Shown piece after piece: positions 20,290 to 54,090 of a DNA stretch of 57,901 bases. The stretch covers positions 1-57,901 of the forward strand of contig JAFYWH010000136.1 of the NCBI GenBank assembly GCA_017558175.1, in the 5' to 3' direction. Position numbers and translations under genes: made by a program. Origin of the DNA: Bacteroidaceae bacterium (lineage in GTDB: Bacteria > Bacteroidota > Bacteroidia > Bacteroidales > Bacteroidaceae). Positions within the stretch are counted from its first letter, which is position 1, and each line of letters starts with the position of its first letter. The notes beneath the pieces were generated by a model that searched no databases, was not told the DNA's origin, and saw nothing but the letters and a program-made list of their open reading frames with translations.

Positions 20290-20328
20290 AAAGAACCTTT
20301 GTTATACATTTAAATAAGAACGTGTAGG

Positions 20329-21678: not shown

Positions 21679-21794
21679 AAAGTATAACGGATAAACGAAA
21701 AAACGCCCCAAAAGTTATGAAATACTAAAATATTTCGCTTATTTTGTAAAACGTATGTTTATACATACAATGATAGTTGACCTTTAAAATCTAT

Positions 21795-35418: not shown

Positions 35419-35447
35419 TTCTCATACTTTCAAGATAATACTATTCG

Positions 35448-35485
35448 AAGTGGGAGTGCTTTCTGCACTCCCACTTTTCTTTTTT
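35448..35485 (+). terminator. Intrinsic terminator of the parA-spoT operon
   Basis: AAGTGGGAGTGC-TTTCT-GCACTCCCACTT followed by TTCTTTTTT. Confidence 0.9.
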
Positions 35486-35715: not shown

Positions 35716-37632
35716 ATGAAGAAACTATACAGCCTGATTGTACTCCTTGTAGTACTACTCTTTGGGGCATGTAGCGACCCCAAGCATGTTACCGAACCCT
35801 TGCATCGTGCCGAGGCACTGATGAACGAACATCCCGACTCTGCCTTGAACCTGCTGAAAGGCATTGCGCAGACCGAGTTGCAGACTCAGGCACATCATGC
35901 CCGTTATGCCCTGCTCTACAGCCAGGCGCTGGACAAGAACTATATCGACCTTACCAACGACTCACTGATAAACATTGCCGTGGACTACTACAAAGACCGC
36001 GACGATGTAAGAGCCAAGTTCTTCTCCTTTTATTATTTGGGACGCATCTATACTAATGCCAATAACCCTACTCAGGCTACATTGGCCTATATAGAGGCGG
36101 AACAACTGGTAGATGAGTTGGGTGATGACTATGCTGCCGGATTGCTATATAAGCAAATAGGACTCGTCTATTATTCTTATTATGATTTTTCCAAAAGCTT
36201 GCAAGCACACCAGCAAGCCATCGAGCATTTTACCAAAGCGGGTAAACCTATTCACAAAATACAGGCCCAGCTAACCCTTAGTAGTGTCTATAGAAGTCTG
36301 AACGAAGAAGAAAATAGCTACAAGGTCTTACAAAATGCATTAATGGAATCTCATAATCTGAACAATCAAGGTCTTGTTAAATCATGTATATGCAATCTAA
36401 TAGTAGCTTGTATAGACTTGGAGAAGTGGGAAGAAGCCACACAATGGTATCAGGAATATCAGAAGAACAACGGTCGCGACTATCCGTCCATAGCGTTCTA
36501 TGGTTACATAGCCCGACTTCATGCAAAGAATCGGAATTTTAAAGACGCTTTTATGCTCTTGGATGAAATCAAGAAGAAAACTGAAAACCTACAAGATTCC
36601 ATCAACCTATACTATGCCGAATCCCAAGTTCATCAGATGAATGGTTCGTGGGAAGAAGCCTATCGCAGCATGAATAAAAGCGTCAGCCATCAAAATAGAA
36701 TCGTTCGGAAATCCTTGCAACAGCCCGTATTGACCACCCAGAACAACTATTTGAATCAGGAACTGGAATTTAAAGCTTATAAACTCCGTATAGAAAAGAC
36801 ACTACGGACAGTAAGTATTTCCTTAATTTCATTCATTGCTGTAGTTACGGTTTTCTTAATCTGGAAAAAACTCCGTAAGGACTATTTGAACAAACTAAAA
36901 AAACTGGAGATTGAAAACGGACTGCAAATAGAGAAGATACAACTTGAAGCTGAAGAACGGGAACAAAGCCTTCAGTCCATTGTCCGTCTCTTAGAACATA
37001 AATTGAAGGAAGAAAAGTATCTTTCATCACAAAATATGGACAAATTGAGAACGGAACTGGAAGCCACACAACACCATATCAAGGAAAGCCAAAAAGTCCA
37101 GCAAGAGATGGCAAACTATATCAAAGAGCTTTGCCAGCAGAAACAGACACTCAAAGATGAACTGGAAAACCGAACAGTCATCATCAGAGAACTGGAGCAA
37201 GAGAACCGCACTACCCATATCAGCAATAATTTGAAAAGCAAGCTTCTCAAAAGATATTTCACACTGATGGAAGATATGATAACTTTGTCTTCCAGAAAAT
37301 TTAAAAAGGATGAAGACAAACATGAAGCGCTTTCCAAACAATACAAAGAAGCCATAAACAATTTTAGTGGTAACAAGAGTACGGATACTAAATTGGAGAA
37401 GATGGTCAATGAATGCAATGACGATATTATGAAACATCTACGGGAAGAAATAAACCTACCCGATCATACTTATTATCAGTTAGCATGTTATCTATTAGCT
37501 GGATATTCGGTTAACGTCATAGCCTGTGCTTTGGGAGAAACGACAAACACCATCTATAAGAGGAGAGACAAGATTCGTTCCATTATCATGGAATCCGAGG
37601 CTAATCATAAAGATTTATTTTTACAGATATAA
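35716..37632 (+). CDS. TPR-sensor / TM / coiled-coil / LuxR-like HTH one-component regulator
   Basis: Signal with LFGAC lipobox-like motif, TPR helices, TM (VSISLISFIAVVTVFLIW), long coiled coil, C-terminal GYSVNVIACALGETTNTIYKRRDKIR HTH; TATCTTTG -7 box at 35683. Confidence 0.8.
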   Translation: MKKLYSLIVLLVVLLFGACSDPKHVTEPLHRAEALMNEHPDSALNLLKGIAQTELQTQAHHARYALLYSQALDKNYIDLTNDSLINIAVDYYKDRDDVRAKFFSFYYLGRIYTNANNPTQATLAYIEAEQLVDELGDDYAAGLLYKQIGLVYYSYYDFSKSLQAHQQAIEHFTKAGKPIHKIQAQLTLSSVYRSLNEEENSYKVLQNALMESHNLNNQGLVKSCICNLIVACIDLEKWEEATQWYQEYQKNNGRDYPSIAFYGYIARLHAKNRNFKDAFMLLDEIKKKTENLQDSINLYYAESQVHQMNGSWEEAYRSMNKSVSHQNRIVRKSLQQPVLTTQNNYLNQELEFKAYKLRIEKTLRTVSISLISFIAVVTVFLIWKKLRKDYLNKLKKLEIENGLQIEKIQLEAEEREQSLQSIVRLLEHKLKEEKYLSSQNMDKLRTELEATQHHIKESQKVQQEMANYIKELCQQKQTLKDELENRTVIIRELEQENRTTHISNNLKSKLLKRYFTLMEDMITLSSRKFKKDEDKHEALSKQYKEAINNFSGNKSTDTKLEKMVNECNDDIMKHLREEINLPDHTYYQLACYLLAGYSVNVIACALGETTNTIYKRRDKIRSIIMESEANHKDLFLQI

Positions 37633-37647
37633 TTTTACATCATTGAT

Positions 37648-37863
37648 AATCAACAACTTGTATTACCCCCCCCCTAAATAATAATTCGTTACGCATACTG
37701 TATATTACTGAATATCAATAGATTACAAATTGCCCGTGTGTAGGCTAAAGAATATTTTTTAGTCTACACATTAAGTACAGATTATCAATTAGTTAGCAAT
37801 CCGTTTAGGCGAAACAATAATTCGTCTGAACGGATTTAATTTTTCCTTTAATTTATAAATTTG
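37648..37863 (+). promoter_or_regulatory. Complex promoter of the peptide cluster
   Basis: Three WATCAAnnnnTTR sites (37648, 37713, 37783), two long dyads (37737-37770, 37798-37836), a C9 tract and a TAAATTTG -7 box at 37856. Confidence 0.6.
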
Positions 37864-37892
37864 CAAACATGAAAAACATAAAAAACAATATT

Positions 37893-38279
37893 ATGAGAAC
37901 TACAATTTTAATTCTACTATGGGCTTTTATCGATTCATTTTCCGGTTTTGCAAACAGTTATTATGATGAAGATGAAAACAAGACAGACATAATTATAGAA
38001 AAAGGGGAAGGAGATGACACAAACAAACATGCTCGCATTCCCATATATGATCCAATAACTTGTTATTATATGAAAGGAAATATCTATGTCACTACTTTGA
38101 CTGATTTAGGGGAAATCCAGATTAGTATAACCTGTCTGGAAACAGGAAGTTTCTGGAAATCTGTCAACGACTCTAATTCAGGAACAATCTGTGTCCCGAC
38201 TTCATCAGCTAATGGCAACTATATGGTAAGGATTGTTACAGCAAACGGTGATGTCTATTACGGTTATTACAATCTATAA
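37893..38279 (+). CDS. DUF3244-like secreted Ig-fold protein
   Basis: Signal peptide, RIP motif, C-terminal GNYMVRIVTANGDVYYGYYNL; usual partner of TPR-HTH regulators in Bacteroidales; ATG 37893 preferred because ATG 37869 sits at the predicted transcription start. Confidence 0.72.
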   Translation: MRTTILILLWAFIDSFSGFANSYYDEDENKTDIIIEKGEGDDTNKHARIPIYDPITCYYMKGNIYVTTLTDLGEIQISITCLETGSFWKSVNDSNSGTICVPTSSANGNYMVRIVTANGDVYYGYYNL

Positions 38280-38290
38280 ACTCTTCATCC

Positions 38291-40582
38291 ATGAAAATAG
38301 GAATTGTATATTTGGCAACGGGTGCTTACAATAGCTTTTGGAAAGACTTTTATCATACTTGTGAGCAGTATTTCTGTGTGGACGCAGAGAAAGGCTATGA
38401 ACTTTTCACCGATTCACCAGAAAACATGAAGAATATACTATCTGCCAATGTACATATCCGACAGATAGAAGATTTAGGTTGGATAGTCAATACTTCCTAC
38501 AAATCGGAATATATTTTCAGCATCCGTAAAGAACTGGAGGCATACGATTACGTATTCTATATCAATAGTAACTTCCTGTTCACTGCTCCCATTTATGCAG
38601 ACGAAATATTACCCAAAGCCTCCGACAGCTATCTGACGGCCTTATCTTTCGACCATTATTTAAACGTAGATGTCCGGAATTATCCATACGACCGGAATCC
38701 CGATTGTTTGGCATTCATTCACACTGGAGCAGGAAAGCGGTACTATCAAGGTGGCTTCTATGGTGGAAGGACTAAAGAAATGCTTCTTCTGTCGGAGTGG
38801 TGTAAGGCAGCCATCGCACAGGATTTCAACAAGAAAATCATAGCCCGTTTTCATGATGAATCCTATATCAACCGATATTTAATAGACAAGAACCCCAAGG
38901 TCCTGAATGATGAATATGCCTTGCAGCACATTTGGCCCTACCATGGTCCTTACAAGGCTGTCATCAGAAACAAAGAGGAAGTCTTGGGTTCACAGACATT
39001 GGGACAACTGAAAGATGTCTATACAGACACTTCCCTATCCTTCCTTTTGGACGAACATCTATGTTTCCGCCCTGGAGGTATCGTAAACCTATATGGAGGA
39101 TTAGGAAACCAGATGTTCGGTTATGCATTCTGTCTGTATATGCAGAAACAGGATGCCAAACGCCGTTGGTGGATAGATGCCTATGCCTGCATGAAACCTC
39201 ATATTCATAACGGCTATGAACTTAGCAAAGTATTTACCGACATAGATACTACACTAGAAATAGGTGAAGAGAATCGTATCAAAGTAGCACAAGTACAGGA
39301 TAATCACAAAGCCACGATCAAGGAACATCATTTGTCCAAGGTACAATCTTTTACATTATCGGATAAGCCATTGACTATCTATACAGGTTGCTGGCAGTGC
39401 TACCCATACATAGAAGCCTGTGCCGATGAACTTCGTCACCAATTCCAATTTAATGAACAACGGCTCAATGAAAAGTCCAAGCAACTCTTGGACGTAATCA
39501 GAAACCGCTGTTCTGTCAGTGTACATATCCGCCGGGGTGACTATACAAAGAAAAACAATGAATGGCTGTATGGTGGTATTTGTACGATAGATTATTATCA
39601 GGCAGCCATGCAACGGTTGGAAAGTATACTTCCAGAAAAACCAATCTATTTATTCTTCAGCGACGACCCAGCTTGGGTAAAAGAACATTTCAACATACCT
39701 GATTGCGAAATCATTGATTGGAATAAAAAAGAAGAAAGTTGGCAAGATCTTTGCTTAATGGCGGCATGCCGCCACCACATCATCGCCAATAGTAGTTTCA
39801 GTTGGTGGGGAGCTTGGTTGGGGCAACATGAAGGTACCCTAACCATAGCACCGGACGTTTGGTACAATACCACTCATACTCCCGACCTATTGCCGTCTGA
39901 ATGGATAAGAATTCCTATTCCACCCTCATCGGAACTACTCCAACGGCTATGCAATGACTTGATTTTGCGGAGTAGCTATCTGGATTCGTTGGGATTACAA
40001 CAGGGTAAGATGGGAGCAGTATTGTTCTTTTTCCATTATGCACGACATACAGGGAACACTCTTTATGAAAACTATGCCGAAGAATTGTTCGATGAAGTTT
40101 ACAACGATGTAAACAAGGGTGTATCATACGGTTTTATCAATGGTTTATGCGGTATCGGTTGGGCTGTGGAATACCTAGTAAAACATAATTTCATTGAAGG
40201 AGATACGGATGATGCCTTGGAAGAAATAGACCGACAAGTGATGGTTTACGCTCCTACCCGGCTCACCGATTATTCGTTTGCTAATGGATTGGAGGGTATC
40301 GTTTGTTACGTTTTGTCCCGTCTTCTCTCGCCTAGAGCATCAAAAGCTTCTTTACCTTTTGATGAAAGATACCGAAAGGAGTTGTATCTGGCTTGTAAAA
40401 ATATACCAAAAGAAGAACAAACAACTTATATCCGTTCATTAATAGATTTAGTGGAAAAGGGGAAGTGTATCTATTCATTTGATAAAGTTATTGAACAATT
40501 ATTTGAGTTGTCAGAAGATGTTTTCAATATGAAAGGTATGACTTGGGAAACTGGTATAAAAATGATGAAGCGTGTTAACTAA
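38291..40582 (+). CDS. Fusion: GT6 glycosyltransferase + GT11 alpha-1,2-fucosyltransferase + LanC-like domain
   Basis: GT6: KIGIVYLATGAY..FW..F, FTD, NSN, YYQGGFYGG, FHDES. GT11: GGLGNQMF, VHIRRGDY, FSDD, IIANSSFSWWGAWL. LanC-like: GL..GKMG..LFFFHYAR, GLCGIGW..EYL, F.NGLEGI. Confidence 0.85.
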   Translation: MKIGIVYLATGAYNSFWKDFYHTCEQYFCVDAEKGYELFTDSPENMKNILSANVHIRQIEDLGWIVNTSYKSEYIFSIRKELEAYDYVFYINSNFLFTAPIYADEILPKASDSYLTALSFDHYLNVDVRNYPYDRNPDCLAFIHTGAGKRYYQGGFYGGRTKEMLLLSEWCKAAIAQDFNKKIIARFHDESYINRYLIDKNPKVLNDEYALQHIWPYHGPYKAVIRNKEEVLGSQTLGQLKDVYTDTSLSFLLDEHLCFRPGGIVNLYGGLGNQMFGYAFCLYMQKQDAKRRWWIDAYACMKPHIHNGYELSKVFTDIDTTLEIGEENRIKVAQVQDNHKATIKEHHLSKVQSFTLSDKPLTIYTGCWQCYPYIEACADELRHQFQFNEQRLNEKSKQLLDVIRNRCSVSVHIRRGDYTKKNNEWLYGGICTIDYYQAAMQRLESILPEKPIYLFFSDDPAWVKEHFNIPDCEIIDWNKKEESWQDLCLMAACRHHIIANSSFSWWGAWLGQHEGTLTIAPDVWYNTTHTPDLLPSEWIRIPIPPSSELLQRLCNDLILRSSYLDSLGLQQGKMGAVLFFFHYARHTGNTLYENYAEELFDEVYNDVNKGVSYGFINGLCGIGWAVEYLVKHNFIEGDTDDALEEIDRQVMVYAPTRLTDYSFANGLEGIVCYVLSRLLSPRASKASLPFDERYRKELYLACKNIPKEEQTTYIRSLIDLVEKGKCIYSFDKVIEQLFELSEDVFNMKGMTWETGIKMMKRVN

Positions 40583-40611
40583 TATAATATTCACTTTTAT
40601 TTTAGAGACTT

Positions 40612-40851
40612 ATGAAACTTAAAAAGATTATACTACATGATGGTAATGAAGTTTTGCAACAGAATGAAATGAAGATGATTAAAGGAGGTGATGGAGAAAC
40701 AAAAAGTTGTAATAGTTCGTCCTGTACTGGCTCTTGCAGAGAACTTGTTCCTATATGGAATATTTACAAAGATGGTGTTTGTCAATGGAATTCTATATAT
40801 GATAGTGAAAAGAATGAATATTTAGTCTGTGAATGTAAATTGAAATTATGA
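40612..40851 (+). CDS. Double-glycine leader peptide precursor 1 (GG-Bacteroidales/TIGR04149-like), 6 Cys
   Basis: 26-aa leader ending EMKMIKGG; 53-aa core with Cx4Cx3C...GxC...CxC. Confidence 0.88.
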   Translation: MKLKKIILHDGNEVLQQNEMKMIKGGDGETKSCNSSSCTGSCRELVPIWNIYKDGVCQWNSIYDSEKNEYLVCECKLKL

Positions 40852-40969
40852 GAGCTATTTTTACCATAATGATTGTGGTTAATTACATCAAAGTCTTGAA
40901 TGAATCACAGATGTGAAATTCCAGGAGAAGAGGGCAACCCAATTCTATTTATAAGTTGAAATGATAAAT

Positions 40970-42211
40970 ATGAAAAAGACAATTTTCATCGGAGCATTAG
41001 CACTAGCATTGGAGGCATGTTCAATGGCTTCGCAGAAGAACGAAGCACAAGGACAGATAGACATTCAGTTCGCATTCGAGAACCCAACGGAACTGAAAGT
41101 TTCGCACTTGGGCAAGAACATCCGATATGTTCCATTGGAAACGATCGACTCATCGCTAATAGGTGAAATGTATGGCATTAAGTTATTGGACGACAAGATT
41201 TTGGTGACCAGTGCTGCCAATTGCCTTCTTTTTGATAAGCGGACTGGAAATTTTTTGTGCAAGGTTAGCGGTAAAGGGCAAGGTCCTAAAGAATATTTAA
41301 ACAGTATTTCGTATGTTCATCCACAGACGGGTGACATTTATTTCAATCGTACCCCATGGAGGATGATTAGATTCAACCAACAAGGCAAGTATTTAGACGA
41401 TTTGCAATTACCTTTCAAGTGGGACTACGGATGTTTCCTGACCTTTAAGGGTAATGAAGCCATTGTACATCGTACTCTTGGAATGAATCAAATCCATCGC
41501 TTCAACATGACAGGAGCAGCAATAGATTCCATCGCATTGCCTTCCAACCGGGAATGGGATTATGGAGACATCAAGACACCTATCATAGCAGAAGGTCCTG
41601 CCAGCTCTTTGATGGGGGCAGGAATGTTTACAACTAATGGGTTTTACATTATTCAATATAAAACAGAAAAAAGGCAAGATCTTCTTACCGTACACTACCC
41701 TTCCATTTACCTCTATAAGGACGAAATGCGTTTCCATGAAGCCTATAACGATACCATTTATCGTATAGACGGAAATACACTTGTTCCACAATGGGTATTC
41801 CACACAGGCGAATGTCATACACCGAGAGAACTGTATGGCAATGTAGAAGAAAGCAAGAAGCGTATGGTAGTAACCTACATAGCCGAAACGGAAGACCTAC
41901 TTTTCTTTGAATGCGCCAAAGAATGGTTTACTCAAAAGAAACCGGATCTCCGCTATGGCATCTATCAAAAGAAAAATGGTATAACCATGATAGGACAAAC
42001 TTACGAACGTATCACGGATGACTTGACTCAGTTCATTCCTTTCTATCCTACGACCCATTCTGTAAAAGGAGAGTTTGCTGGAACATTAAGTATCGAACAA
42101 ATTCAAAAATGGTTAGAAGAGCATCCCGATGTAAAACTGGAAGGTGCATTGGCTCCGCTTAAAAGCTTGGCAGATGATGCAAATCCAGTTGTGGTGATTG
42201 TGGAACCTTAA
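40970..42211 (+). CDS. Six-bladed beta-propeller lipoprotein 1 (DUF4934/DUF5128-like)
   Basis: Lipobox LEAC; IRYVPLET...LI, GKGQGPKEY, NDTIY and C-terminal DDANPVV. Confidence 0.82.
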   Translation: MKKTIFIGALALALEACSMASQKNEAQGQIDIQFAFENPTELKVSHLGKNIRYVPLETIDSSLIGEMYGIKLLDDKILVTSAANCLLFDKRTGNFLCKVSGKGQGPKEYLNSISYVHPQTGDIYFNRTPWRMIRFNQQGKYLDDLQLPFKWDYGCFLTFKGNEAIVHRTLGMNQIHRFNMTGAAIDSIALPSNREWDYGDIKTPIIAEGPASSLMGAGMFTTNGFYIIQYKTEKRQDLLTVHYPSIYLYKDEMRFHEAYNDTIYRIDGNTLVPQWVFHTGECHTPRELYGNVEESKKRMVVTYIAETEDLLFFECAKEWFTQKKPDLRYGIYQKKNGITMIGQTYERITDDLTQFIPFYPTTHSVKGEFAGTLSIEQIQKWLEEHPDVKLEGALAPLKSLADDANPVVVIVEP

Positions 42212-42267
42212 AAAATTAAAATGATGAACCGTATTAAATAAATTATTCACTTTTAACTTTAAAAATT

Positions 42268-42519
42268 ATGAAGCAATTGAAGAAAATGGCTCTTAAAGAA
42301 GCCGAAATTTTGACAGACAAGGAAAAGAAAATGGTATTAGGTGGTAATCTTGAAGGCGATACATGTAATGTAAGTACAACATGTGACGATGGTACTGTAT
42401 TGGCTATTTATGACTGTAAAGGTGTGTGTAGTTCACTTCCTGGTCAGTTTGTAGAATGTGTAGGACAGTCAAAGACTTTAACAAAATCATGTGGAGGAAC
42501 TGGTAATGAGGTACAATAA
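42268..42519 (+). CDS. Double-glycine leader peptide precursor 2, 6 Cys
   Basis: 26-aa leader ending EKKMVLGG; 57-aa core with 6 Cys. Confidence 0.88.
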   Translation: MKQLKKMALKEAEILTDKEKKMVLGGNLEGDTCNVSTTCDDGTVLAIYDCKGVCSSLPGQFVECVGQSKTLTKSCGGTGNEVQ

Positions 42520-43678
42520 AATACAGTTGATTACGGTATTAATATCTTTCGTGGTTACAGCATGTAACCACGAAAAAAAAATATTGTCCGACCTTATTTA
42601 TTTGAACTGTGAGAATGCAGAAAATCGGGAGGCTCCTAAACTTTCTTTGTTATTGAAGGACATACGTTATGTCGCTTTGGAAACCAAGGACACTTGTCTG
42701 TTGAACAGACCGACCAATATCACCTTGACGGACAAGTACATCGTGATGGATGGCGGACACGAGACGGAATGCTTCGTGTTCGACAAGCAGAATGGCAAAT
42801 ACGTCCGCACTATCGGCATGCGCGAGGATCCTGGACCTACAGGATATTACATGTGTACGTATCCAATCTATGTTCAAGGCGATGAAATGTATTTGAAGGT
42901 AGATTGGCTTGGCAATAAGTATAAGGTTTTTTCCTTGGATAATGGAAGCTTGTTGAGAACCATCGATGAAAAGACAGAAGGACAAAGATGGCCCAGCGAT
43001 TACCTTTATCCGCTGAACGATTCCACCATGTTGCAATATGCTAACAACAGATATGGAAACCGCAAGTATGGCTTGCAAGTATGTACTTGGTCGGGGAACA
43101 TCCTGAAGAAATTCCCTTCGCTCAACAATTTTAAGAGGAACGAAGCTTTGGATTATACTATCGCTTACCACAATGAAATGAATTTCTACAGATATAACGA
43201 GCAAGTGTATTTCCACGAGTTCACATCAGACACTATCTTCCGTTTGAACGAGTCTTTGGACGTAGAACCAGTCTATGTAGTGGGTAAGGGGGATAAGATT
43301 CCTGTGCCGGAATTGCGGAACGAAGTAGATCAAGAGACAAAGTACAAGAAACTTATTAAATTCGATTACATAATGGAAACCGACCATCACTTGTTGATGA
43401 TGGGTAATCGATGGAATGAAGTAGCCTACATTTACGACAAGCAAACTGGTGAGACCAGCCGTCTGGAAGAAGAAAATGCAACCTTTTTTAACGATTTGAA
43501 CGGATTCCTACCTTTTTGGCCTATTGGGCGTGGACGTGATGGAGCAGAGAACGAGGTATGGGCATTGATTCAACCGGACCAGTATATGGAAGGTGTAAAA
43601 GCAACGGGTGTAAATCCATTAGGATTTGATTTAAAGTTTGATGATAATCCGGTAATTGCAATAGGAACGTTAAAATAA
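42506..43678 (+). CDS. Six-bladed beta-propeller lipoprotein 2
   Basis: Lipobox VTAC; IRYVALET..CLL, FD...GKYVRTIG..PGP..Y, SDTIF and DDNPVI; ATG 42506 overlaps precursor 2 by 14 nt. Confidence 0.82.
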   Translation: MRYNKIQLITVLISFVVTACNHEKKILSDLIYLNCENAENREAPKLSLLLKDIRYVALETKDTCLLNRPTNITLTDKYIVMDGGHETECFVFDKQNGKYVRTIGMREDPGPTGYYMCTYPIYVQGDEMYLKVDWLGNKYKVFSLDNGSLLRTIDEKTEGQRWPSDYLYPLNDSTMLQYANNRYGNRKYGLQVCTWSGNILKKFPSLNNFKRNEALDYTIAYHNEMNFYRYNEQVYFHEFTSDTIFRLNESLDVEPVYVVGKGDKIPVPELRNEVDQETKYKKLIKFDYIMETDHHLLMMGNRWNEVAYIYDKQTGETSRLEEENATFFNDLNGFLPFWPIGRGRDGAENEVWALIQPDQYMEGVKATGVNPLGFDLKFDDNPVIAIGTLK

Positions 43679-43722
43679 AGTAAATGATAATCGTCAAACA
43701 TTAATGTTAAAATATAGGTTTT

Positions 43723-44925
43723 ATGAAACACTACTACCTGTTCAATAATGCCAGCCGGGCAGCACAATATGGTATCGGTACTTACCTCAACCAATTATGT
43801 AATGGATTGAAGGAAGAAGTTTCGGTAAGTATCATAGCTATTAATTCGGAGGAAGAGGAAGTAAAAAGGACAGAAGAGGACGGAGTTTGTACCATTCACA
43901 TCCCCGAAATCTCCTATAAGAATGCACCAGAGAACTTCGAACGCTATTACCGCAATCTGGTCTATCTGCTGAAAACGTATATCGACAAGAATGAAGAAGC
44001 AGTATTTGTGTTGAACTACCTATATATGACACCACTGGTAAAATTGCTTCATGAGCACTTCCCTAATTGCAAGGTAGCAACCGTTGTGCATTATTTGAAC
44101 TGGTGTTTCGCATTGAACGGTAACGTAAGCAAGTTCCATCAATTGCTAGAAAATAATCATAGGGACGAAAAGGGACAAGCCCTTTACAAAGAATACCAAA
44201 ACGACAGAAAACTGCTTCAAGAAGTAGACAAGGTTGTCTGCTTATCGCAATCTACCCGTAACTTACTGATTGCAGACTATCAATTGAAGCTAGAAAAGAC
44301 GACCGTCATTTACAATGGACTGAAAGACGAGGGAATAATGACAATCACATCGGAAGAACGGAAAAAACTGAAACAATCCTTGTCCTTTGATGCAGAGGAT
44401 TCGATAATATTGTTTGTCGGTCGGTTGGATAGTATTAAGGGAGTAGATTTCCTGATCAAAGCCTTCCGAAAAGTATTGGAAATATGTCCACATGCCCGTC
44501 TGTTATTGGCTGGTGATGGAGATTACAACGCCTATTTGAAAGAATGTAACGGCATCCGTACTCGGATTACTTTTACAGGTAAAGTAAAAAAAGAAGAACT
44601 GTACCAATATTATCAAATAGCCGATGTAGGTGTAATGCCATCCTTCCATGAGCAATGCAGCTATGTAGGCATTGAGATGATGATGCATGGTGTACCTTTA
44701 ATCGGAACCAATAGTACCGGATTGGGTGAAATGACAATGGATGAACTAAAGGTAGAATTAGATGAAAATAAAGAAGAACAACTTTCAGTAGAACTGCTTG
44801 CAAACAAGATTATAAAAGTTCTGACTTCACAACAAACAATCTGGAGAGAAGCAAGTCGCAAACGATATGAACGTTGTTATACACAAGAAAACATGAAAAA
44901 AAAATACTTGAATCTATTTACTTGA
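43723..44925 (+). CDS. GT4 glycosyltransferase, GG-Bacteroidales peptide system type (TIGR04157-like)
   Basis: N-terminal SRAAQYGIGTY signature; ILFVGRL..IKG; PSFHEQCSYVGIEMM.HG (EX7E). Confidence 0.88.
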   Translation: MKHYYLFNNASRAAQYGIGTYLNQLCNGLKEEVSVSIIAINSEEEEVKRTEEDGVCTIHIPEISYKNAPENFERYYRNLVYLLKTYIDKNEEAVFVLNYLYMTPLVKLLHEHFPNCKVATVVHYLNWCFALNGNVSKFHQLLENNHRDEKGQALYKEYQNDRKLLQEVDKVVCLSQSTRNLLIADYQLKLEKTTVIYNGLKDEGIMTITSEERKKLKQSLSFDAEDSIILFVGRLDSIKGVDFLIKAFRKVLEICPHARLLLAGDGDYNAYLKECNGIRTRITFTGKVKKEELYQYYQIADVGVMPSFHEQCSYVGIEMMMHGVPLIGTNSTGLGEMTMDELKVELDENKEEQLSVELLANKIIKVLTSQQTIWREASRKRYERCYTQENMKKKYLNLFT

Positions 44926-44938
44926 GACATAGAGAATC

Positions 44939-46489
44939 ATGAACAATATTTTGACATCATTTCTGAAAGCACTACATGTAAAATACACTTCGGCTTATGC
45001 GGAGAAACTCTATGAAGAACATCCGCATAAGTATAATCTGTATGGCCTCTCCAAAATGCTGGAAGAATATGGGATAGCTAATGCCGGCGTGCGTATAAAC
45101 GACAAAAACATACGATCATTGAAAACACCATTCATCGCGCACATCGGCAATGATTTTGTGGTAGTAAACAAAGTGACGGACAAGCAAGTCAGCTATCATT
45201 GGAGAGATAAAGAAATCAATGTAACCGAAGATCAATTCAAGAACTTGTGGAGCGGTGTGGTACTCATTGCCGAAACGGATGAAAATTCCATCGAACCGGA
45301 TTATCTGCAACATAGAAAACACTATCTTTTGAATCTTTGTCAAAACATTCTACTGGCAGCGATTCCCTTAATTGCCTTGTTGTGGATATACAGCAAGCAA
45401 GAGTTCCATATCGCTAATGCCTTTTTATTTCTACTTTATGCAATCGGTGCATTGACTAGTTTACTGCTGGTGCAGAAACAGATTTATGCACACGGACAAT
45501 ATGCTGATAAAATCTGTTCGTTGTTCAAGCAGAAGGATTGCAACAATGTATTGGAATCCGATGCAGCAAAAGTATTCGGTTGGGTTAGTTGGAGTGAAAT
45601 AGGGCTTGGCTATTTTCTTTCCAACTTATTGTTAATGGCAGTATGTCCTGCATTGATTCCTTATTTAATCCTCATCAACCTTCTTGCTCTACCTTATACG
45701 ATATGGAGTGTATGGTATCAGTATAAGGTAGTGAAGCAATGGTGTATGCTTTGCATGGTGGTACAAGGAATTTTGTGGTTGTCTGCGCTGACCGGATGCA
45801 TAGGAGGAATGATACAACTGCCTGGTTTTAATCTCATGGATATATGCAAAGTAGGAATGATTTATATATTCCCTACATTGGCGGTAAACAAAATATCTTC
45901 CTGGTTGGCTTCAGAGAAAAAAACGAGACATATCACACAAGAATTAAACAGTCTGAAGACGACAGAAGAAGTTTTCAAGGCATTGTTGGAGAAACAACCT
46001 TATCATTCCGTTGATGTTACGGATTCATGCATTCTGTTCGGAAATCCAGAAGCTCCGCTTCGTATCAGCATTCTTACCAATCCTCATTGTGAGCCATGTG
46101 CAAAAATGCATACTCGGGTTGAAAAACTGTTGCAAAAGGCTGGTGACAAACTATGTATACAATACATTTTTTCAGCATTCAACAATGACCTATTAAAAAG
46201 CAATCGTTTCTTGATTGCAGCCTATCAGAATGAATCGAGGGAAAAGGCAGAGGCTATTTATCATCGATGGTATGAAAAAGAGAAGTACCATGCGGTTTCC
46301 TATATAGAAAGTTTTGGTTATGATATTACAACCGAAACGGTAACAGAAGAATTGAAACGGCACAACGATTGGAAAGAAACAAACAAATTGTCCGCTACAC
46401 CTACTATTCTTGTGAATGGTTATCTACTTCCAGATCATTATCAGATAGAAGATATGGCAGAGTTTGTGGATTCTGCTATCAATAATTAA
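44939..46489 (+). CDS. Inactive C39-like domain + VKOR + thioredoxin/DsbA-like fusion
   Basis: C39-like N-terminus without the QxxxxDCG motif; VKOR loop CSLFKQKDCNNVL and WCMLC; Trx NPHCEPC and TPTILVNG. Confidence 0.88.
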   Translation: MNNILTSFLKALHVKYTSAYAEKLYEEHPHKYNLYGLSKMLEEYGIANAGVRINDKNIRSLKTPFIAHIGNDFVVVNKVTDKQVSYHWRDKEINVTEDQFKNLWSGVVLIAETDENSIEPDYLQHRKHYLLNLCQNILLAAIPLIALLWIYSKQEFHIANAFLFLLYAIGALTSLLLVQKQIYAHGQYADKICSLFKQKDCNNVLESDAAKVFGWVSWSEIGLGYFLSNLLLMAVCPALIPYLILINLLALPYTIWSVWYQYKVVKQWCMLCMVVQGILWLSALTGCIGGMIQLPGFNLMDICKVGMIYIFPTLAVNKISSWLASEKKTRHITQELNSLKTTEEVFKALLEKQPYHSVDVTDSCILFGNPEAPLRISILTNPHCEPCAKMHTRVEKLLQKAGDKLCIQYIFSAFNNDLLKSNRFLIAAYQNESREKAEAIYHRWYEKEKYHAVSYIESFGYDITTETVTEELKRHNDWKETNKLSATPTILVNGYLLPDHYQIEDMAEFVDSAINN

Positions 46490-46517
46490 CTATTTTATTC
46501 ATTTAAATTCTAACTTT

Positions 46518-46727
46518 ATGAAACAGAAAAAAATTGTATTAAAAGAAGGGATGAATCAGCTTCTTGATTCTGAATTGAAAGCCTTGAAAGGTGGTAGTAA
46601 AGTAATGTATACATACTGCCATTGTTACGGTCTAACAGAAGGATTGGAAGCTACAGGTTGCGACCAATGTGAAAAATTATGTAAAAATGCCGGTGGTGTC
46701 CAAAACTGTAATTATGTGATTGCATAA
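46518..46727 (+). CDS. Double-glycine leader peptide precursor 3, 6 Cys
   Basis: 26-aa leader ending ELKALKGG; 43-aa core with CxC...CxxCxxxC...C. Confidence 0.88.
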   Translation: MKQKKIVLKEGMNQLLDSELKALKGGSKVMYTYCHCYGLTEGLEATGCDQCEKLCKNAGGVQNCNYVIA

Positions 46728-46754
46728 AGCTCGCATTTTTAGTATGAGTAAAAC

Positions 46755-46782
46755 TAGTCGGTGTGTATTTGCACACCGACTA
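46755..46782 (+). other. Strong intergenic hairpin without U-tract
   Basis: TAGTCGGTGTG-TATTTG-CACACCGACTA, 11-bp perfect stem. Confidence 0.7.
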
Positions 46783-46798
46783 AATAGCATGTATAAAT

Positions 46799-48106
46799 AT
46801 GATTAATAAAGTTAAATTCTTATATTGTATAATTGCAGTCTTTGTAGGACTCGGATGCTCCGATACTAAAAAAACAGGAAATGTTGAAAATGTACAACAA
46901 GCTGTGGCAATAGAACAAACTACCCTAAAAGTAGAAATACCAAGCGAACCTAAAAAGCAGAACGAACCCAAACATAGTAAGGACAATACTCCTCAAAAAG
47001 AAGTCCAAAAGAAAAAGAACCCTGACGGCTACTATAACATTCCTTATGATAAGAAAGCACGCAATATCAAAGTGGAGGATTTGTTCAAAAACGTCAGATT
47101 TGTACGTCTAGAAACCAACGAGAACTGTCTGGTGAATGAAAATAGGAATAAAATTGAATGTAAAAATGGAATAATATACATGCAGAATGACCGTCCGTCT
47201 ATTACTGAATTCCTATTATTCAATAAAGAAGGGAAATATTTAAGAAGCATCTGCAAACAAGGGGAAGGGCCAGAAGAGTATAGTAATGCTATGAATATAG
47301 CGATTAATAGTAAGGGAGACATTTCTGTGGCAGATTGTACGGGAGCTACTGGACGAATTGTAACTTATAGTTCGGACGGGAATTTCATATCGCACATTAA
47401 ATTGCCGGGGATTGCCTCCGAAACCCCTTTAACCGACCTACTTGACATTACTTATTTGAATGACAGTGTCCTTCTAATTAAAGGTGACCGTGGATGGGTA
47501 ACAAAGAATCAGTATCAAACTTTCAATATATATACTAAAAAGGTGATTAGGAATATGCATTTGGTAAAGCGTCGTCCTTACCACATGTACTTTCCAGAGG
47601 GATTTGTCACCTATCAAAGCAAAGCAATAATAGCAAGCTATCAAAGCAATCAAATATTAGAAGCCACGGAAGATACCGTCAGAGTGAAATACACGTTCAA
47701 CATTGGTAACAAAATGCCTCCAGCAGGTTTTTGGGAAGAACAACCGTCCTATGAAGTTACCAAAAAAGAAGAGGTTTCGAACGAATATATTGGCCATATA
47801 CCATTCTTTGCAGAGAATGACCGATATATGTTCATCAGTTTTATGGGAAGCTTGGGTGTAGGAAATTTGCAAAGCCTGGCTTTGGTGGAAAAGGCGACAG
47901 GCAAGTCTAGAACGTTCAAAAGAATTGTATTGGCTGATAATATGATGATTGAACCTATAGATTTTTTCTGGCAAAGCAATGGAGAAATAATCATTCCAAT
48001 TTGGCCTCATGAGATTATAGAAAGCGAAAACAAAGAATTTCTATCCCAATTCCCTGACTTAAAAGAAGATGACAATCCTATATTGTTAATCGGAGAATTA
48101 ATATAA
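46799..48106 (+). CDS. Six-bladed beta-propeller lipoprotein 3
   Basis: Lipobox GLGC, K/Q/P-rich tether, VRFVRLETNENCLV, GKYLRSI.KQGEGPEEY and EDDNPIL. Confidence 0.82.
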   Translation: MINKVKFLYCIIAVFVGLGCSDTKKTGNVENVQQAVAIEQTTLKVEIPSEPKKQNEPKHSKDNTPQKEVQKKKNPDGYYNIPYDKKARNIKVEDLFKNVRFVRLETNENCLVNENRNKIECKNGIIYMQNDRPSITEFLLFNKEGKYLRSICKQGEGPEEYSNAMNIAINSKGDISVADCTGATGRIVTYSSDGNFISHIKLPGIASETPLTDLLDITYLNDSVLLIKGDRGWVTKNQYQTFNIYTKKVIRNMHLVKRRPYHMYFPEGFVTYQSKAIIASYQSNQILEATEDTVRVKYTFNIGNKMPPAGFWEEQPSYEVTKKEEVSNEYIGHIPFFAENDRYMFISFMGSLGVGNLQSLALVEKATGKSRTFKRIVLADNMMIEPIDFFWQSNGEIIIPIWPHEIIESENKEFLSQFPDLKEDDNPILLIGELI

Positions 48107-48125
48107 ACATTAAAGCAACCAAGGC

Positions 48126-50333
48126 ATGAAACGCTTCCCCCACTACCTCCAGCACGATGCGATGGACTGCGGTCCTACCTGCTTGCGGATGATTGCCAAA
48201 TACTACGGCAAGAACTATTCGCTACAGACACTGCGTGAACGCTCTTTCATTACCCGTGAAGGAGTGTCGATGCTCGGCATCAGCGATGCAGCGGAAAGTA
48301 TCGGGTTTCGCACCTTGGGCGTGCGTATCTCCTTAAAGCAACTACAGGAGGATATGCCCCTGCCCTGCATCTTGCACTGGAACCAGAACCACTTTGTGGT
48401 GTTGCATGACATCCGCAAGCGACGGGACGGGTATCGCTATTACATTGCCGACCCGGATTCGCAACTCATTGCCTATACCGAAACGGAGATGCGCAAGTGT
48501 TGGTTAGTGACCAAGACCGACGGCGAGGAGAAGGGGGCGGCGTTGGCATTGGAACCGTCGCCGCAGTTCTACGAGAAGAAGGACGAGACGGAGAAACATA
48601 CGGGTAAGGGATTGTTGTTCTTTGCCAAATACCTTTTCCCTTACCGGAAAGAGTTCGTGCAGTTGCTGTTGGGAATGCTGGTGGGTACATTGCTGCAACT
48701 AGTATTTCCGTTCCTTACGCAGTCGTTGGTGGATGTGGGGATTCGTGACGGAAATCTTTCGTTCATCACCTTGATATTGGTGGCTCAACTGGTGGTGTCG
48801 GTTTCGCAACTGTCAGTGGAGTTCATCCGCAGCTGGATATTGTTGCATGTGAACACACGTATCAACATTTCACTGATTTCGGACTTCCTGATCAAGCTGA
48901 TGAAACTACCTCTCCGTTTCTTCGACACGAAGATGGTGGGCGACATCATGCAGCGCATCGGCGACCATAACCGCATCGAGTCGTTCCTCACTGGCTCTTC
49001 CGTCAGTACGCTGTTCTCGTTCGTGAACTTCTTCATCTTCGGGGCGATATTGGCGTACTACAATCCGCTGATACTGGGTATCTTCTTGTTTGGGAACACG
49101 CTGTATGTGGCGTGGGTAATGGTATTCATGAAGTACCGCCGGGAGTTGGATATCCGTCGCTTCGCACAGGCATCAAGTGAGCAAAGCAGCCTGATACAAT
49201 TAGTCACGGGGATGCAGGAAATCAAGCTGAACAACTGTGAGCGGCAGAAGCGTTGGCAGTGGGAACGCATACAGGTGAAGCTGTTCCGCATCAGCGTGAA
49301 GGGAACGGCACTGGGGCAGGTACAGCAGGTAGGATCGGTATTCTTCAACCAGACTACGAACATCCTTATCTCGTTCATCGCCGCCAAGTCGGTGGTGGAA
49401 GGGCAGATGACCTTGGGGATGATGATGTCGCTCACCTACATCATCGGACAACTGAATGCACCGGTAAGTGCGTTCATCGGCTTCGCACGTCAGCTGCAGG
49501 ACGCGAAAATCAGTCTGGAGCGTCTGAACGAGATTCACGGACGGGAAGACGAGGAACAGCAGATAGAAAGCAAGCTGGCCGTACTGCCCGAACGGAAGGA
49601 CATCACGGTGAACCACCTTTCGTTCAGCTATGACGGAGCAGACCGCGACTATGTGCTGGATGACGTGTGTCTGGAGATACCGGAAAAGGAAATTACCGCC
49701 ATTGTGGGGGCAAGCGGTAGCGGAAAGACGACGCTACTGAAACTGATATTGGGATTCTATGAACCGAACAAGGGGGACATCCGCATGGGGGATACACCCA
49801 TCGGCCTCATCAATCCGCACTTATGGCGGGCGAAGAGTGGGGCGGTGATGCAGGACGGTTTCATCTTTTCGGATACGATAGCAAACAACATTGCCGTAAA
49901 CACGGACCAAATAGACATTGAGCGGTTGCGTCATGCCGTGACGGTAGCGAACATCCGGGACTTCATCGACTCGCTGCCTTTGGGCTACAATACAAAAATC
50001 GGTATGGAGGGAAACGGCATCAGTCAAGGTCAGCGACAACGGTTGCTCATTGCCAGGGCGGTGTATAAGAATCCGGAGTTCCTGTTTTTCGATGAGGCGA
50101 CAAACGCACTGGATGCCAACAACGAGAAGGAAATCATGGAGCATCTGAACGAGTTCTACCGAGGAAAGACGGTGGTGGTCGTGGCACATCGCCTGAGTAC
50201 GGTGAAGCATGCAGACAAGATTGTGGTGCTGGACAAGGGAAAGGTGGCGGAAGAAGGTACGCATCAGGAATTGACCGAACGGAAGGGATTGTATTACAAA
50301 TTGGTGAAGAACCAGTTGGAGTTGGGGAATTGA
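48126..50333 (+). CDS. Peptidase C39-containing ABC transporter (PCAT)
   Basis: QHDAMDCGPTC, HWNQNHFVV, TM domain, GASGSGKT, ISQGQRQR, FFDEATNALD and AHRLST. Confidence 0.96.
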   Translation: MKRFPHYLQHDAMDCGPTCLRMIAKYYGKNYSLQTLRERSFITREGVSMLGISDAAESIGFRTLGVRISLKQLQEDMPLPCILHWNQNHFVVLHDIRKRRDGYRYYIADPDSQLIAYTETEMRKCWLVTKTDGEEKGAALALEPSPQFYEKKDETEKHTGKGLLFFAKYLFPYRKEFVQLLLGMLVGTLLQLVFPFLTQSLVDVGIRDGNLSFITLILVAQLVVSVSQLSVEFIRSWILLHVNTRINISLISDFLIKLMKLPLRFFDTKMVGDIMQRIGDHNRIESFLTGSSVSTLFSFVNFFIFGAILAYYNPLILGIFLFGNTLYVAWVMVFMKYRRELDIRRFAQASSEQSSLIQLVTGMQEIKLNNCERQKRWQWERIQVKLFRISVKGTALGQVQQVGSVFFNQTTNILISFIAAKSVVEGQMTLGMMMSLTYIIGQLNAPVSAFIGFARQLQDAKISLERLNEIHGREDEEQQIESKLAVLPERKDITVNHLSFSYDGADRDYVLDDVCLEIPEKEITAIVGASGSGKTTLLKLILGFYEPNKGDIRMGDTPIGLINPHLWRAKSGAVMQDGFIFSDTIANNIAVNTDQIDIERLRHAVTVANIRDFIDSLPLGYNTKIGMEGNGISQGQRQRLLIARAVYKNPEFLFFDEATNALDANNEKEIMEHLNEFYRGKTVVVVAHRLSTVKHADKIVVLDKGKVAEEGTHQELTERKGLYYKLVKNQLELGN

Positions 50334-50334
50334 T

Positions 50335-51288
50335 ATGGAACAACATTATAAAGACATCGAGCTACGGAGCGAAGAGGTGCAGGAGGTGATGAACCGGGTC
50401 CCTCCCGCCATTCTGCGTTACGGCATTGGGATATTGACAACCATCGTTATGGTACTGCTCATAGGGAGTGCGCTGTTCAGTTATCCCGAATCGGTTCAGG
50501 TGGAGGTAACACTGTCTCCACATAATCCTCCGGCCTACGTCAAGTGCACAGGCGGTGGAAAACTGGAAAGGCTGTATGTGGCCAACGGGCAAGAAGTGAA
50601 GAAGGGCGATATGCTGGCAGTGATGGAAAACGTGGCCAATACGGAAGATATTCTTCTGTTGAGGACGCGCCTGTCCGACTGGCAGGAAAGAGGGGCAAGA
50701 CCGGAACAGTTAGGTATGATTTTCTTCCATCGTTTGCCAAGGTTGGGTAGTGTGCAAGGAACGTATGCCTCCTGCCTCTCGTCATGGAACAACTATCTGC
50801 AACATGCCCATGAGAACCGCATTCACGAAACGGAACTGAACAACGCCGTGGCACAACTGATGACTGCCCTCGGTGAATGGGAAACGGCCTGTTTGCCAAC
50901 CGCTCCCGTGGACGGAAAAGTGGCCTTCATGCAAATCTGGAAGAAGGGGCAGTATGTGAATGCCGGAGAAACCTTGTTTGTGATAGTGCCCGACGGGGAA
51001 TCGGAGTTCACAGGAAAGGCTTTGCTCCCCATGCAGGGTTCGGGCAAGGTACGGACGAGACAGCGGGTCGTCGTCCGGCTGTCTGGATTTCCCGAACAGG
51101 AATACGGTCGGATAGAGGGGGAAGTGGCTTCCATCTCGCCTGTTCCTGATGAGGAAGGCAACTATGTGGTGGAAATCCGGCTTACCCGTATGTCCGTCAA
51201 GCAACCGCCCGTCCTGAAAGTGATGAGCGGAACGGCGGAAATCATCGTCCGCGAACAGAGTTTACTGAAAAGAATCTTTAACCATTAA
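50335..51288 (+). CDS. HlyD family membrane fusion protein
   Basis: RSEEVQEV, one TM, V.NGQEVKKGD..A lipoyl half, APVDGKV, FPEQEYG. Confidence 0.88.
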   Translation: MEQHYKDIELRSEEVQEVMNRVPPAILRYGIGILTTIVMVLLIGSALFSYPESVQVEVTLSPHNPPAYVKCTGGGKLERLYVANGQEVKKGDMLAVMENVANTEDILLLRTRLSDWQERGARPEQLGMIFFHRLPRLGSVQGTYASCLSSWNNYLQHAHENRIHETELNNAVAQLMTALGEWETACLPTAPVDGKVAFMQIWKKGQYVNAGETLFVIVPDGESEFTGKALLPMQGSGKVRTRQRVVVRLSGFPEQEYGRIEGEVASISPVPDEEGNYVVEIRLTRMSVKQPPVLKVMSGTAEIIVREQSLLKRIFNH

Positions 51289-51300
51289 AAATATAAGGAC

Positions 51301-51471
51301 ATGGAACAAGAACAACAAGATATACGGAAAGAACTGAATGGACTGATTGAAACCTATTACGACGGCTCCTTCGCCCGACTGGTGCAAGAGTACATCCGCG
51401 CTTCCGGCATGTCGGAAGAAGAAAGGGAGATGCTGATGGAAGCGATTCATTACATGAAAGAAAATGTTTAA
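51301..51471 (+). CDS. 56-aa protein resembling the BlaI/MecI/CopY C-terminal dimerisation domain
   Basis: Not in the ORF track. MEQEQQDIRKELNGLIETYYDGSFARLVQEYIRASGMSEEEREMLMEAIHYMKENV, 12 nt after the hlyD stop, A-rich upstream. Confidence 0.55.
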   Translation: MEQEQQDIRKELNGLIETYYDGSFARLVQEYIRASGMSEEEREMLMEAIHYMKENV

Positions 51472-51479
51472 AACCATTG

Positions 51480-51599
51480 TTTTCTATACATCTCTACATG
51501 GTTATATGTAAAACACTGCCAATCAGCATCTAAAACTCGTAAAAAGACATGCAAAGAACATATAGGAAACTTATTTCTATACATATTCCTTACATCCAT
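51480..51599. repeat. TACAT-iteron block, left arm of diverged inverted repeat around virE
   Basis: Aligns by eye with the reverse complement of 53967-54069. Confidence 0.65.
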
Positions 51600-51649
51600 A
51601 AATAAAATCATGGATACCGCGTAATATAATTGGTTGATATTCAATATAT

Positions 51650-51703
51650 AACCTCTATTCAAAACATAATGAATGGTCATTCAAAATGTTTTGAATAGAG
51701 GTT
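51650..51703. repeat. 54-bp near-perfect palindrome
   Basis: AACCTCTATTCAAAACAT-AA-TGAATG-GT-CATTCA-AA-ATGTTTTGAATAGAGGTT. Confidence 0.85.
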
Positions 51704-51885
51704 CGCAATATTCTGAATATTGATTCAATGTATTATAAACAGGAATTACACCAAGATTCTACAACATATTCATGTAGAGAAAAAGTGATTGGAGCATATT
51801 TTCATGAAGAATAATGGGCTAAATACTTGACTTTCGATGCTGTATTTTGTATATTTGTAGAAAATAGTGCGACAAACAAAAAAAC

Positions 51886-53970: not shown

Positions 53971-54069
53971 ATGTAGGGATTCATGTAAAGAAACAAGGAC
54001 TCTACATTTTCTCTACATGGATAAAGCATTGATATTCAGTAAACATGTAAAGATGTAGAGATGTAGAAA
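53967..54069. repeat. ATGTAG/CTACAT iteron block, right arm
   Basis: ATGTAGGG, CATGTAAAG, TCTACAT x2, then CATGTAAAGATGTAGAGATGTAGA. Confidence 0.75.
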
Positions 54070-54090
54070 GAAAAATAAATAAAGAAGCGC

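Follow-up and report, generated by a model that had tools for sequence, protein, structure and literature searches.

The stretch analysed here, a 57,901-nt contig from a Bacteroidaceae genome (hereafter the window; the genome is 86% complete and 2.25 Mb in size), raises the question of what a cluster that resembles the radical SAM (rSAM) peptide cassettes, and is devoid of their maturases, could make of its Gly-Gly (GG)-leader peptides, and with which enzyme. The original prediction, drawn from the letters of the stretch, envisaged disulfide-rich and possibly glycosylated peptides exported by a type I route. The island is a real, intact and widespread variant, apparently uncharacterised, and its most distinctive feature, absent from that prediction, is an oxidase predicted from its sequence to face the cytoplasm and to carry a dead leader-peptidase domain. 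This predicted inward-facing, leader-reading enzyme, together with the six-cysteine class of peptides that accompanies it, is the solid novelty of the locus. The proposed gene order and shared direction were confirmed by the list of open reading frames (ORFs) and by family scans, all cluster genes being open frames oriented in one direction, as listed here:

35716..37632, + strand: predicted one-component regulator, 638 aa (family scan; BT3442-like, below cut-off)
37869..38279, + strand: DUF3244 protein, 136 aa (PF11589)
38291..40582, + strand: fusion of glycosyltransferase (GT) domains GT6 and GT11 with a LanC-like domain (PF03414, PF01531, PF05147)
40612..40851, + strand: precursor P1, 26-aa GG leader and 53-aa core (40690-40848; ORF list)
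40961..42211, + strand: six-bladed propeller lipoprotein 1 (DUF5128/DUF4934)
42268..42519, + strand: precursor P2, 26-aa GG leader and 57-aa core (42346-42516; ORF list)
42506..43678, + strand: propeller lipoprotein 2, its ATG overlapping the P2 stop (DUF5128/DUF4934)
43723..44925, + strand: TIGR04157 GT4 glycosyltransferase (EX7E at 309-317; 476.5 bits, cut-off 400)
44939..46489, + strand: fusion of dead C39-like, VKOR and DsbA-like domains (PF03412, PF07884, PF13462)
46518..46727, + strand: precursor P3, 26-aa GG leader and 43-aa core (46596-46724; genome-wide pattern scan)
46799..48106, + strand: propeller lipoprotein 3 (DUF5128/DUF4934)
48126..50333, + strand: peptidase-containing ABC transporter (PCAT), with C15/H89/D109, Walker A/B and signature motifs intact (C39 and ABC families, motif check)
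50335..51288, + strand: HlyD-type adaptor, short form of 317 aa (HlyD_3)

A predicted cytoplasm-facing oxidase and its six-cysteine peptides

All three cores carry six cysteines, spaced 4-3-14-15-1 in P1 (net charge -2), 5-10-3-9-10 in P2 (net -4; a member of a widespread core family) and 1-11-2-3-8 in P3 (net -1). A genome-wide scan for the precursor pattern returned six calls with at least two cysteines, among which P1, P2 and P3 were the only plausible GG precursors. The suggested profile check confirmed the families on the ORFs (TIGR04157 at 476.5 bits), with the precursors themselves staying below the TIGR04149 cut-off of 25 bits (P1 24.4, P3 19, P2 no match). The intact PCAT triad and ABC motifs and the presence of HlyD are consistent with the anticipated type I export. 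The adaptor, at 317 aa, is shorter than that of most related loci (~430 aa); L028, L144 and others also have short forms.

The gene preceding P3 encodes a C39-like domain (residues ~5-114), six TM (transmembrane) helices predicted from the structure model and hydropathy, VKOR cysteines at 193, 201, 269 and 272, and a DsbA-like domain with C384-E-P-C387. Its VKOR domain scores 51.4 bits against PF07884 (cut-off 27.5), and C193, C201, C269, C272, C384 and C387 are invariant in 82/82 full-length fusions. The C39-like domain aligns with the PCAT peptidase domain, starts a little ahead of the position of the catalytic Cys and carries an Asp in place of the catalytic His; PCAT C15 and H89 align to non-catalytic positions. 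In the structure model, Foldseek matched the C-terminal domain to BdbD/DsbA and the N-terminal one to the peptidase domain of PCAT1. No N-terminal hydrophobic signal was found in the 82 homologues, and Lys plus Arg residues, counted within loop limits that we set ourselves, average 12.7 on the side of the catalytic cysteines versus 1.0 on the other (density 0.16 versus 0.03), in the same direction in 82/82 proteins. Taken together, the missing signal peptide and the positive-inside bias would place the cysteines on the cytoplasmic side, and we predict that the C39-like domain, the loop cysteines, the CxxC motif and the DsbA-like domain all face the cytoplasm rather than the periplasm, in an oxidase guided by the leader. 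Cytoplasmic oxidation would make mechanistic sense because the PCAT-HlyD-TolC type I route is established to skip the periplasm (PMC8277102). The genome contains menB and TolC-family genes.

Whether the lack of rSAM enzymes reflects decay or design was addressed at three scales. Within the cluster, no rSAM or dehydratase family matched any of the 14 ORFs, as had been proposed, and a string search of 35.4-54.75 kb found CX3CX2C once, off-frame inside the first propeller gene. In the 86%-complete genome, TIGR04150 had no match, the best TIGR04148 score was 47.5 bits versus a cut-off of 300, and the three SPASM matches were an anaerobic sulfatase maturase (anSME), a TIGR04133 enzyme and a fragment without rSAM core; a genome search for dehydratases gave no matches, but neither did its own controls. 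Contig C22 (~14200-18050, L277) holds a decayed peptide cassette made of a SPASM-only fragment, an outer-membrane barrel, an internally shortened PCAT (247 aa) and a HlyD stub.

At the third scale, we gathered 111 VKOR-fusion loci (94 after merging at 90% identity), 33 of which have flanks of 8 kb or more on each side of the fusion and are referred to as full-flank, and called precursors across loci with a leader pattern devised in this analysis. A peptide rSAM or pseudo-rSAM gene was found at 4/94 loci and at 3/33 full-flank ones, with L103, where an extra CX3CX2C protein was missed by the rSAM profile, counted as rSAM-free. The four rSAM loci are scattered in a VKOR tree built with a quick method, from which we claim no order of events. 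Among 33 further family-level loci an rSAM gene occurred in one, L183, where it accompanies a VKOR-like gene and two-Cys cores that are each followed by a TlpA-like protein. The fusion is carried by 36/400 same-family and 18/400 same-order genomes, about as commonly as the pseudo-rSAM cassette marked by TIGR04150 (23/400); 14 of the 18 VKOR-bearing genomes of the order sample lack a TIGR04150 match. According to their records the carriers are animal-gut metagenomes, and among VKOR relatives whose records carry a name almost all belong to the Bacteroidales. In L184, L185 and L186, shorter VKOR-like proteins (426-431 aa) lie beside convergent ABC transporter pairs and no precursor was called.

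For comparison we used 20 control loci anchored on TIGR04150, with the VKOR gene absent from their fetched DNA, several of which are cut by contig ends and one of which (L145) lies ~10 kb from a VKOR gene. Six cysteines were found in 62/93 cores of rSAM-free loci, and an even number of at least four in 77/93, versus six in 1/17 control cores, whose cysteines cluster near the N-terminus; the nominal Fisher p of 2.5e-6 for the six-Cys contrast is overstated, since kin are not independent. The median distance from the last Cys to the C-terminus is 3 residues in rSAM-free loci versus 20.5 in controls, and the rSAM-type core pattern (clustered N-terminal CxC plus N..AN), derived from our own control loci, occurs in 8/17 control cores versus 2/93 rSAM-free ones and does not fit P1, P2 or P3. 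Being without rSAM is the norm of this family, by design rather than decay, and the contrast between six-Cys and N-terminally clustered cores therefore indicates that one platform serves two peptide classes, of rSAM type and of disulfide type. With six cysteines in each of P1-P3 and in most rSAM-free cores, three-disulfide products are indeed likely, as had been anticipated. Dozens of six-Cys cores, unrelated to one another and acidic overall (median net -2), accompany the VKOR-fusion family; if our prediction is true, gut anaerobes hold a large library of disulfide mini-proteins made by cytoplasmic oxidation with leader-based substrate choice, which would represent new bacterial redox biology and possibly a tool for disulfide-peptide production.

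Proposed pathway and competing explanations

We propose that the VKOR fusion would bind the precursor by its GG leader, using the dead peptidase domain, and would oxidise the six cysteines of the core in the cytoplasm, with electrons passing to menaquinone, to which menB is relevant; that GT4, with help from the LanC-like domain (itself non-catalytic), would put a first sugar on Ser/Thr of the precursor, to be extended by GT11 and GT6; that PCAT would cleave behind the GG and release the cores by way of HlyD and a TolC whose gene lies elsewhere; and that the released peptides would act as narrow-range antibacterial toxins, from which the envelope protein encoded after each precursor would protect the producer. 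To this proposal as a whole, with glycosylation treated as optional, we give an even chance. Its biosynthetic part, the formation of three disulfides by a cytoplasm-facing oxidase, is probable given the conserved sequence features described above. Protection by the envelope protein, argued by analogy with toxin-immunity arrays, falls just short of an even chance, and the sugar on Ser/Thr, begun by GT4 with the LanC-like domain and extended by GT11/GT6, is more tentative still.

Catalytic motifs are kept in both GT6 and GT11. The GT6 domain (1-228) keeps N92-S-N94 and E190, corresponding to the BoGT6a-type NXN motif and catalytic Glu, with N92, N94 and E190 present in 31/31 family members, and its model superposes on BoGT6a (Z 30.8, rmsd 2.1, 231 aligned, 35% identity); acceptor residues are changed, BoGT6a H122 and T134 being F120 and P132 here (F in 30/31 and P in 27/31 family members). 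Plain A-antigen synthesis was rejected as the default activity, since BoGT6a His122/Thr134 are not kept and the product is not assured. The GT11 domain (263-542) keeps HxRRxD. The LanC-like domain (548-763) is a shortened toroid that matches LicM2 (Z 13.3, rmsd 3.3, 204 aligned) and, in a structure atlas, only LANC_like or unnamed clusters; WCxG and CHG, which we take to be the LanC Zn-ligand motifs, occur in 0/31 GT6-GT11-LanC fusions and 0/40 stand-alone LanC-like homologues. A lanthipeptide was rejected, these motifs being missing. In the model, a toroid kept without Zn motifs would suit a scaffold role, and LanC-like proteins without Zn residues have been described in Bacteroidales (PMC10352776). 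In 41/56 distinct cases (loci mostly picked through cassette genes) GT4 has a LanC-like gene immediately upstream, and in one the two are fused, whereas in this island the domain is fused to GT6-GT11; orphan Bacteroidales LanC-like proteins would acquire a testable role, as GT partners and not cyclases.

The GT6-GT11 fusion family is conserved, with many full-length homologues, some of which have added GT2 or GT7C domains. The gene contexts of GT6-GT11-LanC number four (the window, L016, L029 and L066), all found via the VKOR gene. Stand-alone GT6 genes were present in 4/300 family genomes, and a scan of viral contigs for GT6-GT11 gave 80 loci, nearly all single-domain matches. The longer fusions with GT2 or GT7C (P0017, P0052, P0057-P0072) might allow a single protein to build a blood-group-like glycan. 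In L060, L089, L092, L095, L098, L100, L101, L105 and others, we observed a ~540-aa TIGR04157-type GT4 whose C-terminus is extended by a conserved helical region, in the fixed order LanC-like, GT4, GT7C-like, VKOR.

As for the partner proteins, the propellers match NHL repeats in the PDB, along with 4raa, an exported protein that is uncharacterised, and all three, like the regulator, have lipobox-type N-termini when read by eye. Among 100 distinct cores with at least four Cys and a gene behind them, 27 are followed by a gene for a TlpA-like protein (26 with CxxC), 24 by one for a propeller, 19 by one for an outer-membrane barrel and 11 by one for a GLPGLI protein, meaning that an envelope protein of four unrelated families comes after 81/100 precursors. 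In close relatives the enzymes are 77-92% identical versus 59-75% for the P2/P3 cores and propellers, when these are not replaced altogether, and P2 and P3 each stay with their own propeller (74-75% and 60%; 39% in L066). A direct repeat of ~60 nt, containing the end of the LanC-like gene and the precursor 5' region, precedes P1 (40556-40616) and P2 (42215-42272) and flanks the P1-propeller unit; a TATTCA(C/T)TT motif lies upstream of all three precursors. In L016 a P2-type leader is joined to a P1-type core, which shows that peptide cassettes are exchanged and suggests that they switch at the leader. Conflict systems typically keep the leader and swap the cores.

Several observations weigh against this pathway. 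With regard to the oxidase, the count of six helices requires that residues 220-255 be read as two helices, and hydropathy does not separate helices 3 and 4; the model has a pTM of 0.46, with pLDDT below 50 at 186-216; and no VKOR appeared among the Foldseek matches listed or in a PDB sequence search, leaving the VKOR call to Pfam and the cysteines. With regard to toxicity, the cores are acidic, unlike the basic bacteroidetocins A and B. With regard to sugars, GT4 is found in just 17/33 full-flank loci, 7/8 cores from GT-free loci have six Cys too, no shared acceptor motif is visible among cores, Ser+Thr content rises no more than slightly when GT4 is present (18.7% versus 14.3%), and the GDP-fucose genes gmd and fkp were not found in the 86%-complete genome. 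Cores from GT4 loci have an even Cys count in 30/31 cases, and therefore no spare thiol. The possibly glycosylated products foreseen in the original prediction are plausible but less supported, and peptide glycosylation would be at most optional. With regard to the partners, the P1 homologue in L016 precedes an unrelated propeller (only 23% identical), the P2 core family lies upstream of three propellers, three barrels and two TlpA-like proteins, and core and propeller similarity correlate weakly across 23 pairs (rho 0.18, permutation p 0.019), for which linkage suffices. Because one core family precedes three unrelated families of envelope proteins, strict peptide-propeller pairing appears doubtful, and recognition of each peptide by its own propeller, as first suggested, lost ground.

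Along an axis separate from the role of the peptides, these might be made and exported as proposed while the GTs act on the partner lipoproteins or on a self-protective surface glycan, for which we would estimate a probability clearly below one half, yet by no means negligible. Replacement of a glycan next to a toxin gene is known from the BSAP context. GT sets differ greatly between loci and are found with rSAM-type as well as six-Cys cores, which have no acceptor in common, the GT6 donor residues are kept with its acceptor residues changed, and BSAP-2/3 target O-antigen and come without an immunity protein (PMC11901371). On the other side, the fetched TIGR04157 loci lie among peptide-cassette genes and not polysaccharide loci (having mostly been selected via cassette genes), reading by eye shows no signal peptide on the GTs, and their obvious substrate in the cytoplasm is the cassette's precursor.

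It is also conceivable, but rather unlikely in our opinion, that the same biosynthesis yields strain-specific signals, sensed by the regulator or taken up by a partner, with the envelope proteins being switched on. The regulator heading the operon combines a lipobox (C19), an exported TPR region, one TM helix (~365-383) and a C-terminal end resembling a helix-turn-helix, the latter read by eye; in the literature BT3442 is just a TPR protein heading a MACPF cluster. The exported TPR region of the regulator, its place at the head of the operon and its occurrence in 7/33 full-flank loci, the acidity of the cores, the four unrelated envelope-protein families and the similar regulator and propeller loci without GG peptides in the genome would all agree with signalling. 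Most loci, however, are without the regulator within the fetched DNA; a single regulator stands ahead of three unrelated cores, and the fixed leader with swapped cores is that expected of conflict systems. DUF3244 is paired with the same regulator type also on C113 and C114. The C114 locus (15982-22571, L280), where this pair is followed by two small Cys-bearing proteins with a presumably NVEALA-like motif, a lipoprotein and a signal-peptidase-like gene, places a further small-protein cassette behind a regulator of this kind; C5 (667-4952, L281) and C113 (28200-32072) carry a TPR regulator, lipoproteins and a homologue of a 56-aa ORF described below, without GG precursor.

That the peptides bind or inhibit host or other extracellular proteins instead of bacteria is, in our view, improbable: acidic and variable disulfide scaffolds, carriers from animal-gut metagenomes and a GT6-GT11 pair related to blood-group enzymes are what one would expect of such binders, but the family is widespread outside this genus and family and the BoGT6a acceptor residues are not kept. 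A degenerate rSAM cluster, with maturases lost or supplied in trans, was rejected as highly improbable despite the leader type, GT4, LanC-like, propeller, PCAT and HlyD genes common to rSAM clusters, the incompleteness of the genome and its decayed remnant on C22, since all frames and catalytic residues are intact, the cores are not of rSAM type, and the genome search found no peptide rSAM, its two intact SPASM enzymes being anSME and TIGR04133.

The insertion and its genome context

In 5/10 same-genus relatives spoT is directly joined to a 115-aa MerR-like gene and an M23 peptidase, which constitutes an empty site; of the remaining five, one has a locus cut short and four have other genes. 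As these two genes lie at 54.7-56.1 kb of the window, the ~19 kb that follow spoT (~35.5-54.7 kb) are an insertion. Its GC content is mosaic, with 38.6% from regulator to propeller 3, 52.5% in PCAT-HlyD and 45.8% in the whole genome. Further features of the insertion are the following:

35447..35477, + strand: terminator-like hairpin after spoT, at the left insertion edge (hairpin scan, z -8.4; relatives' spoT site)
37798..37836, + strand: strong hairpin in the gap between regulator and DUF3244 (hairpin scan, z -6.9)
46754..46783, + strand: 12-bp hairpin directly 3' of P3 (hairpin scan, z -4.3)
51301..54714, + strand: 56-aa ORF, VirE/BT4734-like and HU-like genes, an insertion tail outside the peptide pathway (family scan, relatives' loci)

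A hairpin 3' of P1 was not above chance (z 0.3), and a sigma-70 promoter scan was uninformative (48 sites versus 43 expected). The 56-aa ORF (51301-51471) has homologues at the other regulator/cargo loci of the genome, on C5 and C113, and the VirE/HU tail recurs at other loci; the ORF belongs to a generic scaffold. The cluster, which had been drawn to 51471, holds as a run as far as HlyD and ends there, at 51288. Around the VirE-like gene we noted a 34-nt inverted repeat (51476-51509 / 54043-54076) and, upstream of it, a 26-bp near-perfect palindrome (51650-51703); elsewhere in the window, 8376-13703 on the minus strand is an ORF of 1775 aa. Two RNA runs contained small shares of the cluster only: X19 gave short pieces, and X20 one 6722-nt contig from a relative, covering GT6 to VKOR, in which ~1.7 kb stand where the island has its two-cassette stretch of 3.5 kb. 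Contigs cannot show transcription, and these were not used as evidence.

Comparison with known systems

Among the closest systems are the bacteroidetocins (class IIf, PMC6671954), which are likewise Bacteroidales GG-leader Cys peptides with a peptidase ABC exporter and no rSAM, and whose synthesis needs a thiol oxidoreductase and a TM protein. The single C39-like/VKOR/DsbA fusion of the island may be the functional equivalent of these two proteins, when compared by description. Bacteroidetocins have a 15-aa leader and a basic core of ~42 aa with 2-4 Cys, whereas the island has 26-aa leaders and six-Cys cores of net -1 to -4 that are unrelated to one another, along with GTs, HlyD and one partner gene per peptide. 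Sublancin has a GG leader and is exported by a PCAT. Glycocins of this type (PMC10125368) share with the island a disulfide-bonded peptide and a cluster-encoded GT and disulfide oxidoreductase. They differ in having two nested disulfides plus a spare Cys in a helix-loop-helix that bears a glycosylated Ser/Thr/Cys, as opposed to six Cys in three different spacings, Gram-negative type I export and oxidation predicted to be cytoplasmic. The island holds GT4, GT6 and GT11 only, without the SunS-like transferase, which we take to be a GT2 enzyme.

Bacterial VKOR-thioredoxin fusions of the Synechococcus type also combine four VKOR cysteines with a fused CxxC thioredoxin-fold domain. The island fusion differs in its extra N-terminal helix and dead C39 domain, in having its cysteines on the predicted cytoplasmic side, and in being apparently tied to a leader-bearing substrate; inverted VKOR/DsbB has indeed been used for cytoplasmic oxidation (PMC4727284). 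The island GT6 shares fold, NXN motif and catalytic Glu with BoGT6a (PMC3961637), but is fused to GT11 and LanC-like domains and has F120/P132 for H122/T134.

The GG-Bacteroidales rSAM cassettes (TIGR04149/04148/04150/04157; BGC3-5 in PMC10352776, a bioinformatic description) share the leader type, the TIGR04157 GT4, a LanC-like protein without Zn residues, a precursor followed by its partner protein, PCAT plus membrane fusion protein, and a TPR regulator. In the island, the VKOR fusion takes the place of rSAM/pseudo-rSAM, and six spread Cys that of clustered CxC plus N..AN. In the literature searched, which left most subscription papers outside, we found no description of the GT6-GT11-LanC fusion, of the VKOR fusion or of six-Cys peptides as a class; PMC10352776 counts 36 stand-alone LanC areas and its supplements may include similar loci. 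The claim that no characterised system has this composition hence stands for the exact gene set and has to be softened for its logic, which bacteroidetocin and glycocin clusters share, and for its rSAM versions, which that article describes. If the peptides do act on bacteria, they would possibly add a class of diffusible Bacteroidales toxins to the six in PMC11901371. The most ambitious combination, that of a widespread and so far undescribed Bacteroidales class of ribosomally synthesised and post-translationally modified peptides in which hypervariable mini-proteins with three disulfides are folded in the anaerobe's cytoplasm by a VKOR-DsbA enzyme that reads their leader, GT4/LanC-like, GT11 and GT6 add a fucosylated blood-group-like glycan, and the exported products form a polymorphic array of toxins whose envelope protectors can be exchanged, we consider unlikely to hold in full. 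Built on the chassis of the rSAM cassettes without their maturases, the island works like bacteroidetocin and glycocin clusters, and belongs to neither.

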